Shown in pieces: positions 33,084 to 47,048 of a DNA stretch of 64,000 nt. The notes beneath the pieces are model-generated. The model worked only from the letters and a program-made list of their open reading frames with translations, had not been told where the DNA came from and did no database searches. Source of the stretch: Mercenaria mercenaria (taxonomy: Eukaryota). The stretch spans positions 62,911,754 through 62,975,753 of the forward strand of contig NC_069372.1 in NCBI RefSeq assembly GCF_021730395.1. Reading direction: 5' to 3'. Position 1 is the first letter of the stretch, and every line of letters starts with the position of its first letter. The translations under genes were made by a program, and so were the position numbers.

Positions 33084-36000
33084 TCAGAGACCCACTTCTT
33101 GATCTTTCAGAGACCCACTTCTTGATCTTTCGCGACCACTTCTTGATCTTTTCGGAGACCTACTTCTTGACCATTCTGCCGCAAACCTACTTCTTGATCT
33201 TCTCGGAGACCCACTTCTTGATCTTCTCAGAGACCCACTTCTTGATCTTCTCGGAGACCCACTTCTTGATCTTCTCAGAGACCCACTTCTTGATCTTCTC
33301 AGAGACCCACTTCTTGATCTTCTCGGAGACCCACTTCTTGATCTTCTTAGAGACCCACTTCTTGATCTTCTCGGAGACCTACTTCTTGACCTTCCGCTAG
33401 ACCTACTTCCTGATCTTCTAAAAGACCCACTTCTTGATCTTCTGAGAGACCTATTTCTTGATCGTCTCAGAGACAAACTTCTTGATCTTCTATGTGACAT
33501 ACTGCTTGATCTTTTCAAAGACCCACTTCTTGATCTTCTTGGAAGCCTCCATCTTGATCTTCTTGGGGACCTACTTCTTGATCTTCTTGGGGACCTACTT
33601 CTTGATCTTCTAAGAGATCTACTTCTTGATCTTGAAGACTTACTTCTTGATCTTCTCAGAGTGTTACTTCTTGATCTTCTTGCAAATCTACTTCTTGATC
33701 TTCTCAGAGACCTACTTCTTGATCTTCTTGGAGACTTTGATCTTGATATTCTAACAGACTTTCTTCTTGATCTTCTTTTAGGAGATTTACTTGCTGACTT
33801 CAAAAATGTCTTTGCTTTATTCCTTTTCAATGGTAGGGTGATTTTATTTTTTACAAAGTCTTTTGACTTTGTTTGTATTTTAGTTAAGCATACCTGATGA
33901 CTCCGACATCTTGCCATTTCGAAATCTGATTCATTTACCAACGAAGTATTCATAGAATAAGAGTATCCAGATGGTTCGGAAAAAGAGAAGGGTGTGTCTT
34001 CATTGATTTGTTTTGTTGAGTCAAATACATGACCTGTCTGTTTACCTCTCATTTGATCTGAGGACTGCATTTGTTCTACATACGTTTTCCTAAAATGATC
34101 ACTTCTCTCTGGGGAGACAGCAGCCTTTCTATAATGCTTAGGACTATCATCAAATGTCTCCATTTCTGCTTCAGCTTGGTGGCAAATTAGTGGTTCTGGT
34201 GCTCTATGGTTGAAACGAGGAAGAAGTTTAGCACGTTTTTTTGCTAAGTTTGGCGGAAGCATGTCTGGGTCAAAATCCGGTGCATAGTATTTGGATAATG
34301 TTTGGGTGTGCTGATAGCCTTCTGTTGATAATTTCTGTATTGTAGAACTATCAAATGCTGGACTGTCACCACTAGGTAAAGTTTGACTACAATCTTGTGC
34401 CATTTCACTATAATGAGGTGAAGTTGGGCTATAATGTGGTGAAGATGGGCTATAATGCGGTGAAGTTGGGCTATAATGTGGTGAAGTTGGGCTATAATGC
34501 GGTGAAGTTGGGCTATAACTTTGAGCAAGTGAGTTATAACTAAATGTAACAATTGGGTTATAACTTGAAACAACTGGCTCATAATTTGGAGCAACTGGGC
34601 TATAACTTGGAGCAATTGGGTTATAACTTGGAGCAAATGGATTATAACTTGAAGCAACTGGCTTATAACTTGTGGCAATTGGGTTATAACTTGAAGCAAC
34701 TGGGCTATAACTCGGAGCAGCTGGGTTATAACTTGGAGCTGTTGGGTTATAACTTGGAGCTGTCTGCTGGTAAGATTCTAACACAGATACTTCATTCAAA
34801 CTGGATTTAACATCACCTTCTTGTGTTGGTGCTACAAATGGCAATTTCTCAGCTGTATAGACTTCTTCCTCTTCATCCTCACAATAATCCTCTTCTTGGT
34901 CATCACAATAGTCTAGTAATTCATCAAATACTTGTGCTTTGTTTTCATGAATTTCTTTATCATCTTTATCCTTTCTCATTTTTTCCATTATTGGTCCATC
35001 AAAGGGTTGATTTGTCTCAGTTTCAGATTCAGAACACTCTAAAGGAACGGAAATATGTTCTGCAACAGGTGCACTCTTTCTTGCTGCCCAAGTTGCTAGA
35101 AGCTTTCCTGATGCAGGATAATTCTTTTTCTTCAGTCCTACTGACTCAGATATTGGTGAATGTCTTAAATCAGTTTGCAAAGAAGTGCCAGAAAATAAAC
35201 GCTGACTTTCACTCAGCTCTATCTCTGTCTTGGAATCAGAAGCCCAAGTTTGAAGTTCTGGTTCAACACAGAGGGATGATGATTTAACAGTAGTGCCCAT
35301 CATCAGAGTATCATTATAACTTAGAGGAATGTCCATTAATGCTAAATCTTCTTCACTTTCAGAGTCTGGTATGTTCACGACCTTTCTATGTCGCTTAGCT
35401 CCCCCTTTTCCAAGACCTTTACCACCTTTACCGCCTCTGCTTGTCCCAGACATGGACATATGCTGAGATCCCCCTTTTCCTATCCCTTTTCCTCCCCTTC
35501 CTCTCCCTGATACACCAGAGCCACCACTGGCACTCCTTATCCCTTTTCCTCCCCTAACTGTGCTTGATAAAGGCTGGACAGAAGCATCAATAGAAGCAGT
35601 TGAAGTAATATTATTAAATAAAAGATCAGGACTATTAGTATTACTGGCACTACGATCCCTATCTCTGTCTGTGTCACACATCTTTTTTCTTTTCTTTTTC
35701 AATTCTCTATCGGAATTGCTAGATGATGATTCTGAACAACTATCATCTTCATCTTCTTCAGAGCCAGAACTAGAACTACTACTGCTAGAACTACCATGTA
35801 TTCGCTCTATTTCACCAGTAGATGGGGCACTTTTTCGTGCTGCCTTTGTTGCTATTTGCTTTCCAGATGAACCTGTCTGTGAAGTCAATCTAGTTTTTGG
35901 ATCAAATATAGCTGTTGAATAATCTAGATACTTTTCAGTTCCTTTTCCGTTTGTGTCCCATCCTAAAGCATCCTCTAGTGCATTGTCAGAGAATAAATCA

Positions 36001-36133
36001 TCCTCTTCCAGCAGGGGAATTTCAGAGGCTTCTTTTAACGACATTTCCAATATATCTATATCCATATCAGAGATATTAATTTCTGGAGGCATTAAGCAAG
36101 GCATTTCAACATCTTCCATCAAACTTTTGTCAC
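33084..36133 (-). CDS. EF-hand/CTD-heptad/RS gene, giant exon (about 1016 codons): acidic N-terminal part, two histone H4-tail-like segments (GRGRGGKGIGKGG; GGKGGKGLGKGGAKRHRKV), SYNPxAP and YSPTSPH heptad arrays, then the RS domain. The frame is lost at 33084-33130 by 1-2 bp indels inside the 24-bp repeat.
   Basis: Track ORF 33084-36122 (TTG start). Acceptor ttttcacag|GTGACAAAAGTTTGATGGAAG lies 14 nt upstream, and G+GT keeps the frame from exon 39597-39695 (...PSEEQGDKSLMEDVEMPC). Confidence 0.75.
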
Positions 36134-36642
36134 CTGTGAAAATATTAACGTAACACTATATGTTTTATTTTTTGAACAAATTTATTTCTCCTGTTTACTG
36201 TATTTCAGTCCTACTGTCACAAAACTTAAGTCAGCGTAATAATGGTATCAATTTACTTATAGATATTTTTCACTGTAAGTTGGTCATAAATCTGTAAAGT
36301 TTAATTATACTGACCTCTTTTCAATTATACGCAAAATTGATATAAGAAAACTACTCACCAAAATTTGAAAATAGATCTACATCAATACTTTTTGAAATTA
36401 ATTACCCATGGTAAAAACAAAAGTTGACCTCATAGGAATGATTGACCAAGTTGTAACCTATATGATATGGATTGGACAGGGAAAAACCCTACTGACCTTT
36501 GATCTCAGTGTGATCCTGAGAATGAGCTAGGGATCTGCGTGTTGGGCATGACAAGTTGCCTCATTCTAGGAAACATTTGTGCCAAAAAATATTAAAATCC
36601 CTCAACAGATGGCAGATTTATGAACCACACAGGAAAAAAGAA

Positions 36643-45160: not shown

Positions 45161-45955
45161 CACTAAAGTTGAGTAATACCCCCAGACACTGCTATGATAC
45201 AGGGAAAGCAAAATGTTGTGATCATAACCTTTGACCTTCAACTGAACCTAATGACCTGGGCTGTACACAAATTTGAGCTATCTGATCCTTGACCTCTAAG
45301 CATGACATTGACCTTGCACTCTGCATGCTGTCTTGATGAAGTTAACAACTAATGCTAATTTCATGAAAAACCTTCCAGTGGTTCCCAAGAGCTGTCACTA
45401 TTGGTGACAAATGCCCCCTAAGTGACCCAAGAATGCCACAGTTGTATTCGCAAAAAATCACATATCATTTTGTGACCTTGACCTAAGAGGCCTCGGTCAT
45501 AAGTGTGACACATCTTCTCAATATGGTTAACATTTGTGTCAAATTATTTTCAAATCCCTTGATAAATGGCAGAGTTATGGACCAGACAAGAAACACCTTT
45601 AACTTCTAAGTGTGACCTTGACCTTGGAGCTAGGGGTCTGGGTCTTGCACATGACACCTCATCTCATTATAGGGAACATTTATGCCAAGTAATTTCATAA
45701 TTCCTTCATCAATGGCAGAGTTATGGACCGGACATGAAACATACCCTGTTAACCTTCGACTTGTAAGTGTGACCTTGACCTTGGAGCTAGGGGTCTGGGT
45801 CCTGCGCATGACACTTAATCTCATTATGGTGAACATTTGAACATTTATGTCAAGTTATTTCAAAATCCCTTTATGGATGGAAGAGTTACAGTCCGGAGAA
45901 TTTACCGGACGCACGCACGGACGGACAGTGCCATTTTAATATGCCCACCATAAAA
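45161..45955 (+). mobile_element. Second-family Helentron-like element(s): two 5' ends (45161 and 45379, aagagctRtcactaWWGttGa...ccccc), ~190 bp 'gtgaccttgaccttggagctaggggtctgggtc' units, and a 3' end cggacgcacgcacggacggacagtgccattttaatatgcccaccataaaaag
   Basis: The sequence was read directly and has the same architecture as 40286-40468. Confidence 0.5.
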
Positions 45956-46972
45956 AGATCAAATACAAATTTGAGCTATTTGATCTATGATCTTCAAGTG
46001 TGACCTTTGACCTTATGATATTGAGTTGTGCACTCTGCATGTCATCTTGATGAGGTTAACAACTAATGCTAATTTTGTGAAATTCCTTCCAACTGTTTGG
46101 AAGATATGGAGCTGACATAAATCCAAGCTGTCTTATCTCGGACCTCCAAGTATTACCTTGATCTTGACCACAGTGACCTGGGCTGTGTGCTCTGCATGTC
46201 ATCCCAATAGAGTAAATACCTGATGTTTTATTTTACGGTTTAGAAGATATGTAGTGGAAATGAAGTTTTTCCACTTGACTATTGACCTCCAAGTGTGACC
46301 TTGGTTGTGCATATAACCTTGACCTTGACCCTAGTGACCTTGGCTGTGTGCTCCGCATTCTGTCGTCCCAACAGAATAAATACCTGATGTTTATTTTATA
46401 GTTTAGTAAATATGACGTGGAAATGAAGTTGTTCTATTTGACTACTGACCTCCAAGTGTGACCTTGGTTGTGCGCTCTGCATGTTGTTCGGATAAGGTAA
46501 ATTACTGATGTTAGTTTATGAAAATCTTCCAGGCCATTAAAACGATATGGAACAGACAAAAAATTACACTAGCTGAACTTTCACCTTGACGTTTGACCTA
46601 GCAACCTTGGTTGTGTGTTTTGCATGGCATCCTTGATGAGGTAAATTATTGATGTTAGGTTTATGAATATCTTTCAAGTGGTTAAGAAGATACTGACAGA
46701 CAGACAAAGGGATGGACATGTGTGACTCCAATATCAAATACAAACACAAATTTGAGCTATTTGATCTTTGACCTTCAAGTGTGACCTTTGACCTTGGATC
46801 TAATAACTTAGGTTGTGCACTCTGCATGTCATCTTGATATAGTTAACACTGTACCAGAGGGATGATTTAGCTCAAAAGGGAAAATTAACTCTTCATACTC
46901 CTATAAACTGAAAATATTTAACTGACTAAAGTATAGAGAGAAGAATTAACTGACATGAGTAACGCAACTTAC

Positions 46973-47048
46973 CTTCTATTTGTGCCAAGATGTTCCCAAT
47001 CGGTTCTGCATGGTTCTGTTCATAAAATTTTCCTAGTTTATCATACAC
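46973..47048 (-). CDS. EF-hand/CTD-heptad/RS gene, upstream coding exon (VYDKLGKFYEQNHAEPIGNILAQIE), ends in phase 1
   Basis: Minus-strand acceptor catttatttttcag|GTGTATG and donor AGAAG|gtaagttgcg; the phase joins exon 44601-44999 (G+aa gives GAA). Confidence 0.55.

Follow-up and report, generated by a model that had tools for sequence, protein, structure and literature searches.

The function of PARP4 (vault PARP) and of the vault itself is a long-standing puzzle, to which mammals have offered one strong clue, a positively selected disordered exon whose sequence is uninformative. This largest exon of vertebrate PARP4 (human exon 30) encodes a disordered stretch of more than 300 amino acids (aa) that separates the ITIH-like region from the C-terminal domain, and is highly variable in length and sequence apart from a few conserved islands (PMC4038475). 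Recurrent positive selection on PARP4 is focused solely on the largest exon, and a host-pathogen interface has been proposed (PMC4038475; see also PMC10450202). Here we describe a 64-kb stretch of the genome of the clam Mercenaria mercenaria (the window; coordinates below are positions in it, and all exons of the gene discussed lie on its minus strand) that holds part of a PARP4 orthologue. In the place of the largest exon, the clam gene appears to carry a giant disordered exon with recognizable copies of the tails of histones H3 and H4, of the heptads of the Rpb1 C-terminal domain (CTD) and of an arginine-serine (RS) domain, probably with a calmodulin lobe encoded ahead of it.

Compared with human PARP4 exon 30, the clam exon lies in the same gene, as judged by the homology of flanking exons, at the same position, and is likewise a single outsized exon among small ones. 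It would be three to four times longer than the largest exon of vertebrate PARP4, and differs from PARP4 elsewhere in its H3, H4, CTD and RS copies, which have not been reported for PARP4, and in the calmodulin-derived cassettes ahead of it. H3 and H4 tails, the CTD and RS domains are among the most conserved, bound and modified linear sequences of the eukaryotic nucleus, and calmodulin is similarly conserved and has many binding partners. Known histone mimics (influenza NS1 with ARSK, SARS-CoV-2 ORF8 with ARKS, NOP16, EZHIP and JARID2 K116) offer a comparison of working principle only, and they too center on the H3 motif around ARKS/K27. These mimics span 4-10 residues of one tail, whereas the clam exon carries 19-35 residues of both H3 and H4 in several copies, and the clam copies differ also in that they are predicted to be attached to an ADP-ribosyltransferase. 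Plant NLR integrated domains and the disordered linker of NLRP1 act as decoys or 'tripwires', in which copies of host targets sit in a fast-evolving region of an immune protein. Likening clam PARP4 to them is an analogy from composition, and extends the proposal made for the vertebrate exon (PMC4038475).

The locus encodes part of a PARP4 orthologue

A first-pass annotation of the window had described a stand-alone gene of five exons (46973-47048, 44601-44999, 41903-42046, 39597-39695 and 33084-36133), joined in compatible phases without in-frame stops and not assignable to any family. The exon chain holds up well: AG and GT flank all five exons, which when concatenated form 1255 codons in a single frame with zero stops, and outside the borders of each exon the open frame shuts within ~20 codons. 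Chance is excluded as the source of the open frames of the long exons, as no stops occur in the 132 codons of exon 2 (10.2 expected from shuffles), in the 452 codons of unique sequence that precede the heptads in exon 5 (33.9 expected) or in the 206 codons between the heptads and the RS array (13.5 expected). The codon-position composition of the exons, with a G-rich first and a C-poor third position, is close to that of a syntaxin open reading frame (ORF), the sole other clear coding ORF of the window; an intron control is flat.

The family assignment and the limits of the gene have fared differently. Exon 1 contains no Met and has an acceptor upstream, so the unit must reach beyond the five exons originally delimited. 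When the conceptual clam protein was compared by tblastn with a locus of Ruditapes philippinarum (L002), which holds a minus-strand gene of 2013 aa with the Pfam domains BRCT_2, PARP, VIT and VWA, an unexpected match was returned via exon 1. A six-frame comparison then gave four conserved minus-strand exons, at window positions 63780-63688, 63024-62920, 61786-61658 and 47048-46968, with 74-86% identity to this PARP4-like gene. They are designated exons A-D.

63697-63777, minus strand: PARP4 exon A (MLHQLTARAVITDFENGILDDDRVKHQ), AG/GT borders, phase 0-0, end of the ITIH-like region; 84% identical to the Ruditapes PARP4-like exon, and also matching a sponge PARP4-like protein (P0113).
62923-63024, minus strand: PARP4 exon B (VLKNEKKQYIIDLSKKYSIVTSYTSFVAIEDRQQ), phase 0-0; matches P0113 (E=3.5e-7), Ruditapes and human PARP4.
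61667-61777, minus strand: PARP4 exon C (DVCDVSIIPSIDDLIKKETVDILPYIDWEPGVEDKDE), phase 0-0; matches the Ruditapes exon and human PARP4.
46973-47048, minus strand: PARP4 exon D, which is exon 1 of the five-exon chain (VYDKLGKFYEQNHAEPIGNILAQIE), phase 0-1; 74% identical to Ruditapes L002 1988-1908 (E=1e-10).

All four exons have AG/GT borders and join in frame (phases 0-0, 0-0, 0-0 and 0-1). Concatenated, they match residues 1123-1213 of human PARP4 (PDB 9BW6/9BW7/11JF, 1724 aa) with E=1.4e-20, and exons A-C, which match the sponge P0113 as well, contain the C-terminal end of the PARP4 ITIH-like (VIT + vWA) region with its conserved ...TSFVA[IV]E... segment. The piece of Ruditapes ORF that matches exon D has the same first residue and continues into the same GK read-through, which fits shared exon borders. 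Because exons A-D join in frame and match both human PARP4 and the Ruditapes exons, exon 1 is very probably an internal exon of the clam PARP4 orthologue, at the end of the ITIH-like region, and not the start of a gene of its own; a stand-alone gene with an upstream ATG exon was dropped from consideration once exon 1 proved to be PARP4. The gene probably runs on the minus strand from beyond position 64000 down to ~22247, so that the window would hold its central and 3' part. Its N-terminal BRCT-WGR-HD-ART catalytic region would lie beyond 64000, as the BRCT_2 and PARP hits of the syntenic Ruditapes gene suggest.

The syntaxin/SNARE ORF (53196-54110, plus strand) is intronless, encodes 304 aa that are 100% identical to a RefSeq syntaxin-1A-like protein of M. 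mercenaria, and lies in antisense orientation within the PARP4 intron that separates exons C and D. In Ruditapes, too, a homologue with 71% identity is nested within the PARP4-like gene on the opposite strand, and the insertion is thus probably older than the split of the two venerid clams. A Mactra relative (55% identical) lies at a different locus (L003), inside a CoA-transferase gene, and added no synteny.

A giant exon in the place of the PARP4 disordered exon

Exon 5 of the chain, referred to here as the giant exon, lies between exon D and two probable C-terminal exons, Y and Z, on the same strand and in compatible phase, and there is no other long ORF between exon D (46973) and exon Y (23018). 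The sponge match P0113, which is the RefSeq PARP4-like isoform X2 of Sycon ciliatum, has ~12 YSPTSPS heptads in its post-ITIH disordered region, and the Sycon gene is divided into ~36 small exons and a single large one, of 422 aa, in which these heptads lie and which follows exons sized like A and B. Given the shared strand and place, the compatible phase, the lack of a rival ORF and the sponge layout, the giant exon is likely the clam counterpart of the largest, disordered exon of PARP4. Its modules up to the RS array are as follows.

33084-36133, minus strand: giant disordered exon, as far as a stop inside the RS array; acceptor ttttcacag/G, phase 1.
35796-35900, minus strand: H3-tail copy 1 (PKTRLTSQTGSSGKQIATKAARKSAPSTGEIERIH), spanning H3 residues 3-40 but interrupted at the APRK position by a gap of 4 residues; tblastn E=2.9e-6.
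35679-35702, minus strand: basic stretch LKKKRKKM, a regular-expression match and putative nuclear localization signal (NLS).
35367-35558, minus strand: three H4-tail-like units, VRGGKGIR..., GRGRGGKGIGKGGSQH and SRGGKGGKGLGKGGAKRHRKVV; tblastn E=2e-8.
35043-35120, minus strand: H3-tail copy 2 (GKLLATWAARKSAPVAEHISVP), the most conserved block of the giant exon.
34404-34760, minus strand: ~17 CTD-like heptads as 21-bp tandem repeats, SYNPxAP-type and then five YSPTSPH.
34251-34295, minus strand: conserved motif SKYYAPDFDPDMLPP, with the counterpart DKYFAPDFDPLLIP in the homologue P0085 described below.

The first-pass annotation had credited this ~1000-aa exon with acidic regions, H4-tail look-alikes and CTD-like heptads, of which the H4-like tails are confirmed by tblastn and the heptads by Pfam, and had missed the two H3-tail copies. 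Acidic and serine-rich stretches alternate with the basic modules, and the first ~47 residues of the exon fall below a pLDDT of 50 in an AF2 model. One of the H4-like units, SRGGKGGKGLGKGGAKRHRKVV, is identical to H4 residues 5-23 at 18 of 19 positions (95%). ATxAARKSAP is common to the two H3-like copies, whose nine shared codons differ by five synonymous changes. KAARKSAP, ARKSAP and GKGGKGLGKGGAKRHRKV are copies of linear histone-tail motifs in a non-histone protein, and only tails are represented, since tblastn with H3 and H4 queries gave no match to the histone-fold part of either. The heptads score 25.5 bits against the Pfam family of Rpb1 C-terminal repeats (PF05001, cut-off 20.3). They are of the YSPTSP type, as in Rpb1, but Pfam finds no polymerase core, Rpb1 proteins align solely to the heptad zone, and most of the clam heptads are S2N/S5A (SYNPxAP) or S7H variants. 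In the same way the exon shares an RS domain with SR proteins but has no RRM by Pfam. A segment of the human PARP4 exon-30 region that we take to read SLPTDPDPIRGF bears a faint and very short resemblance to KY[YF]APDFDP, a motif that the giant exon shares with P0085.

Conservation of the modules in a second species

P0085 is a 775-aa ORF of a 3-kb Logan contig (SRR29726839 contig 26998, L001 528-2860) and is ~30% identical to exon 5. It was recovered with exhaustive phmmer of the exon-5 body against 1.84 billion representatives, where the best 150 matches, which were those examined, all align to the heptad zone only and include neither a self-match nor a full-length orthologue; a motif scan and masked blastp of these 150 left just P0085 and the sponge PARP4 P0113, and P0085 is the only giant-exon homologue among them. 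Word-index protein searches with aa 1-1025 and aa 1-318, made in a collection that includes M. mercenaria RefSeq proteins, returned only calmodulins and concatenated histone models, with no self-match and no orthologue.

The order of modules is the same in P0085 and the clam: an H3-like block, an acidic region, ARKSAPVAEHI.VP, heptads, KY[YF]APDFDP and RS. In the first block, GGK---KLIATKAARKS of P0085 corresponds to H3 residues 12-28 with a 3-residue gap where clam copy 1 has one of 4 residues. In the second, ARKSAPVAEHIPVP of P0085 aligns with ARKSAPVAEHISVP of the clam, and ARKSAPVAEHI.VP is invariant at 13 of 14 positions. The heptads of P0085 read YSPTSPS or YNPTxPS, KYFAPDFDP stands for the clam KYYAPDFDP, and an H4-like RGRGRGGKGIR and an RS domain are also present. 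These conserved islands, together with the synonymous differences of the H3 copies, argue for purifying selection on the islands. In P0085 a good acceptor precedes the ORF by 9 nt and the stop codon is part of a GTGAGT donor, as expected of an internal exon and not of a complete gene; the parsimonious reading is that P0085 represents the same PARP4 disordered exon from another mollusc. P0085 also has a third partial H3 copy, ESAPAAGGV (H3 residues 28-35). Metagenome and viral contigs scanned with the alignment of exon 5 and P0085 yielded no relatives, so a viral origin is without support.

The RS minisatellite and the stop at 33084

33035-33110, minus strand: frameshift zone with three 1-bp deletions, net -3, that create a TGA at 33084-33086.
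32053-33776, minus strand: RS domain encoded by a 24-bp minisatellite of ~65 units, RRSRSGSL / RRSRSRSP (TRF).
31643-33083, minus strand: probable continuation of the giant exon, with the rest of the RS array and a Lys/Arg-rich tail.

The exon had been taken to end at 33084 and to hold hundreds of RS dipeptides. Between 33084 and 36133 there are 61 RS and 37 SR, with a further 90 RS and 58 SR in a downstream ORF (31569-32945), and 33084 is a frameshift stop within the minisatellite that is probably not the true end. After the frameshift zone the RS frame resumes and stays open for 458 codons. The zone borders a duplication of ~316 bp within the RS array (33318-33634 versus 32745-33060), whose copies differ by one 1-bp indel and one mismatch, suggesting that the duplication is either very recent or an artefact of assembly or polishing. 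Because the frame resumes and the stop lies at the junction of this duplication, it is most likely a minisatellite consensus error or a very recent lesion. A donor scan gives a candidate end of the exon at CAG/GTAAAG, with 31643 as the last exon base and phase 1.

Probable C-terminal exons

22889-23018, minus strand: probable penultimate exon Y (TAEDSVPERPLHYFELSEQLCSLIGAKRSRIIHILTSQGVKSLG), phase 0-1, AG/GT borders; weak match to human and sponge C-terminal queries.
22247-22584, minus strand: probable last exon Z, reading VKTEQNVYRVIATLLTL...IFNDM up to its stop and tentatively assigned to the MVP-interacting domain.

Exons Y and Z lie 8.6 kb further downstream than the giant exon. Their in-frame junction reads ...GVKSLG|VKTEQNVYRVIATLL..., and Z is closed by a stop. 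They resemble the C-terminal MVP-interacting domain of human PARP4 (GIQSLGVKGRECLLDLIATML), with a blastp E-value of 1.4e-5 and an hhalign E-value of 6e-4 over 39 columns, both of them pairwise. Over residues 1123-1213, the human PARP4 sequence used here agrees with the PDB alignment. The window has no match to 'DG[SF]W', taken as a signature of the C-terminal domain in PARP4, and the confidence of a single-sequence AF2 model of Y+Z (pLDDT 47.7) was too low for a fold search. Y and Z are probable, but not proven, exons of the MVP-interacting domain. A weak match of a C-terminal query at 30647 lies inside a repeat, has no exon-like features and was rejected.

Calmodulin-derived exons ahead of the giant exon

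44601-44999, minus strand: cassette exon 2, 399 nt, phase 1-1; its 3' end is a remnant of calmodulin exon 2, DVNLTEDQVA.
41903-42046, minus strand: cassette exon 3, 144 nt, phase 1-1; it stems from exon 3 of calmodulin and holds the canonical EF-hand 1.
39597-39695, minus strand: cassette exon 4, 99 nt, phase 1-1; truncated calmodulin exon 4 with a new phase-1 donor after ...EIDLDPSEEQ.

Exons 2-4 are colinear with calmodulin residues 5-84 and encode a canonical first and a degenerate second EF loop, as previously proposed. By tblastn the exon 3 region is 71% identical to calmodulin residues 10-60 (E=1.5e-20) and exon 4 is 48% identical, and the closest public calmodulin to the cassette is 68% identical. 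Measured against PROSITE PS00018, the first loop fits and the second (DAAGSGTVNFGN) fails at loop positions 3 and 12. The Pfam check for EF-hands that had been suggested is positive, with EF-hand_1 at E=1.4e-11 and EF-hand_7 (PF13499) at 40.1 bits against a cut-off of 30, over aa 159-220. In an AF2 model made with a calmodulin alignment, LTEDQVA...KDTD forms a four-helix EF pair with two short strands (pLDDT 82-86), and its surroundings are below 50. The likeness to calmodulin thus extends to a canonical EF1 and a predicted EF pair, but concerns the N-lobe only, in which EF2 has lost two ligand positions and which is embedded in a larger reading frame. Calmodulin residues 10-86 are the only ones matched by tblastn across all 64 kb, with no exons for EF3 and EF4 (the C-lobe) to complete a set of four EF-hands. 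A complete, separate calmodulin gene was rejected, as the window has no further calmodulin exons. The remainder of exon 2 consists of 96 Met-less orphan codons, including three 45-bp repeats (GYQNDGMEMESDVRA), with no homologue in a protein search; 96 open codons before the first Met fit an internal exon.

The claim that the EF-hand exons sit in frame with the ~1000-aa exon is supported by the phases. Exon D ends in phase 1, exons 2, 3 and 4 are all 1-1 and exon 5 starts in phase 1, so any or all of exons 2-4 can be skipped without loss of frame, and the junctions of D with 3 and of D with 5 are in frame. The length and borders of exon 3 are exactly those of exon 3 in vertebrate CALM genes, whose intron positions are matched as well. 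Calmodulin exon 2, of 31 nt and phase 0-1, appears extended 5' into the 399-nt exon, and calmodulin exon 4, of 107 nt and phase 1-0, appears shortened to 99 nt, its new donor being in phase 1. Substitutions in the cassette spare the hydrophobic core, the target-binding methionines and EF loop 1. The symmetric phase-1 remodelling, the six intact splice sites and the freedom from stops and indels despite divergence point to use rather than decay, and somewhat favor inclusion of the cassette in at least some PARP4 mRNAs. The exons are probably a clean example of exon shuffling, in which a partial calmodulin gene has been reshaped into phase 1-1 cassettes.

Alternative explanations

It could be argued that exon D is spliced straight to the giant exon and that exons 2-4 are unused relics of a dead, partial calmodulin duplicate in the intron. 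The in-frame junction of D with 5 would permit this, EF loop 2 is degenerate, no public protein with exons 2-4 was found, and EF-hands are missing from the Pfam hits of the Ruditapes PARP4-like gene, from the sponge PARP4 and from P0085. Set against such decay are the six intact splice sites, the open frame of exon 2 (132 codons), the retention of core hydrophobic and Met residues and of EF loop 1, and the lack of any stop or indel in a cassette whose identity to calmodulin has fallen to 71% (exon 3) and 48% (exon 4). Moreover, both end exons have been remodelled to phase 1 and to lengths divisible by three, which is not expected under neutral decay, and relics are on the whole rather unlikely. 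A decidedly improbable reading, close to that of the first-pass annotation, makes the giant exon, alone or together with the calmodulin exons, an independent sense-oriented gene nested in a PARP4 intron and started from its own Met (MEDVEM... or MEMESD...). Exon 1, however, is demonstrably PARP4 and phase-compatible with exons 2-5, exon 2 opens with 96 codons that contain no Met, a long disordered exon is required of PARP4 at exactly this place and 46973-23018 holds no other candidate. Met codons do occur near the start of exon 5 and in exon 2 (A at -3, G at +4), P0085 was called from an ATG 9 nt past its acceptor, and the syntaxin retrogene shows that nesting occurs in this gene. NLS, RS and histone-like content would also suit a nuclear protein, PARP4 being mainly cytoplasmic; yet CTD heptads are found in the equivalent exon of the sponge PARP4, and the P0085 ORF ends in a donor.

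The least probable of these explanations, and a very unlikely one, is that the region is a decaying PARP4 pseudogene or is mis-assembled, and its string of motifs functionless. The in-frame stop produced by three 1-bp deletions, the near-perfect 316-bp duplication in the RS array and the failure of the searches to find a protein model would all be explained in this way. Outside the 75-bp frameshift zone, however, 790 unique codons contain 0 stops where ~58 are expected, 458 codons are open past the zone and every splice site is intact. Conservation of the H3-like blocks extends across two species that are otherwise ~30% identical, the internal copies differ synonymously, and a net change of -3 at a repeat junction looks like a minisatellite consensus error.

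Several observations nevertheless weigh against a PARP4 gene that includes the giant exon. As assembled, the exon is interrupted in frame at 33084 by a stop that would deprive the protein of its C-terminal domain, and a Met lies 5 codons into the exon, from which independent translation is possible. No exon was found to bridge the gap between the end of the giant exon, in phase 1 at 31643, and exon Y, which starts in phase 0, and the assignment of Y and Z is statistically weak, phmmer of Y+Z against the PDB, which includes full-length human PARP4, having given no match. The exon phases of P0085 are 0 and 2, as opposed to 1 and 1 in the clam, the Ruditapes PARP4-like protein is not among the best 150 phmmer matches to the heptads, and the Ruditapes syntaxin is placed in the equivalent intron solely via the homology of four exons to the PARP4-like gene. 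Neither the word-index searches nor the best 150 phmmer matches contain a public protein with exons 2-5, and any RefSeq PARP4 model that exists would therefore skip these exons, or the locus has been called a pseudogene. The locus seems to have been missed or called broken by automated annotation, possibly via the minisatellite frameshift. The presence of the giant exon in a PARP4 mRNA is accordingly a prediction from genomic sequence.

A possible function for the PARP4 disordered exon

The architecture appears real and unusual, and would represent a lineage-specific elaboration of the PARP4 hypervariable exon, probably with an exon-shuffled calmodulin lobe. The disordered exon would have grown to ~1000-1500 codons in the clam and become a string of tail copies, namely two of H3 (with ARKS at K27/S28 intact), up to three of H4, ~17 CTD heptads and the RS domain of the minisatellite. 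Part of a calmodulin gene, comprising exons 3 and 4 and the tail of exon 2, would have landed in the phase-1 intron before the giant exon and been reshaped into three symmetric phase 1-1 exons, so that an N-lobe with one working and one dead Ca2+ loop, as predicted, could be added without breaking the frame. The disordered exon might then serve as a display surface tethered to an ADP-ribosyltransferase, whose tail copies could attract binders and modifiers of H3, H4, the CTD, SR domains and calmodulin, be they host enzymes or pathogen effectors. The recruits would be brought to PARP4 and the vault, and there ADP-ribosylated or sequestered. Such a bait or decoy mechanism is put forward tentatively and is doubtful as it stands; it is preferred because the arms-race signature of vertebrate PARP4 falls on this exon.

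PARP1/2-HPF1 prefer serines in KS motifs, such as S10 and S28 of H3. A second possibility suggested by this preference is that the serines of the ARKS copies are cis-acceptor or pseudo-substrate sites for the PARP4 catalytic domain. The generalization that the hypervariable exon of PARP4 is an array of integrated decoys, which capture effectors for ADP-ribosylation on the vault PARP, is more speculative still and quite unlikely. If true, it would be the first mechanistic account of the arms race on this exon in animals and would give the vault PARP a function. The null view is that the giant exon is a drifting low-complexity linker, against which the islands conserved with P0085 argue. In contrast to its mammalian counterpart, the clam exon is readable, with recognizable H3, H4, CTD and RS copies and probably a calmodulin lobe ahead, and it turns a vague 'specificity interface' into testable hypotheses about what binds each module and whether the ARKS serines are ADP-ribosylated. 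The literature search found no paper that links calmodulin, H4-tail mimicry and RS domains, and none that pairs PARP4 with YSPTSPS.

Other repeats and elements in the window

The introns of the five-exon chain had been described as packed with a 1.4-kb minisatellite and Helentron-like elements. The minisatellite is present (28-bp unit, 42212-43616), as are arrays of 145/166-bp satellites; the Helentron-like label is unverified, as these introns have no Rep/helicase ORF and no ORF that reaches 150 aa, only satellites and SINE-like repeats being seen. The PARP4 intron between exons C and D also contains an 80-bp minisatellite (57560-61133, minus strand; 44 copies, 90% match), whose minus-strand unit reads ...EDIKSDSDTLELV followed by a consensus GTAAGT donor, creating a 243-aa ORF (58942-59673) and dozens of decoy 5' splice sites.

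Arrays of the 145-bp satellite lie at 36707-38117 and 49071-50178, with units that carry the pseudo-ORF ...QGFSIF.PTDLVF...IIKVNILTNFHED..., and relatives occur at 16100-16370, at 23250-25890 and at further points of the window, as well as in Mactra (locus L003), marking a repeat family widespread in bivalves. A 726-aa ORF (2134-4314, plus strand) matches the reverse transcriptase family RVT_1 (E=1.1e-38) and is presumably a copy of a non-LTR retrotransposon. Copies of a SINE-like element (...MDPDQTA...LVWIHAGRK...) are found at ~8900-9046, 13957-14210, 20380-20640, 47173-47253, 48280-48370 and 48823-48936, one of them 125 nt upstream of exon D, and the same element recurs at several places in the Ruditapes locus L002.

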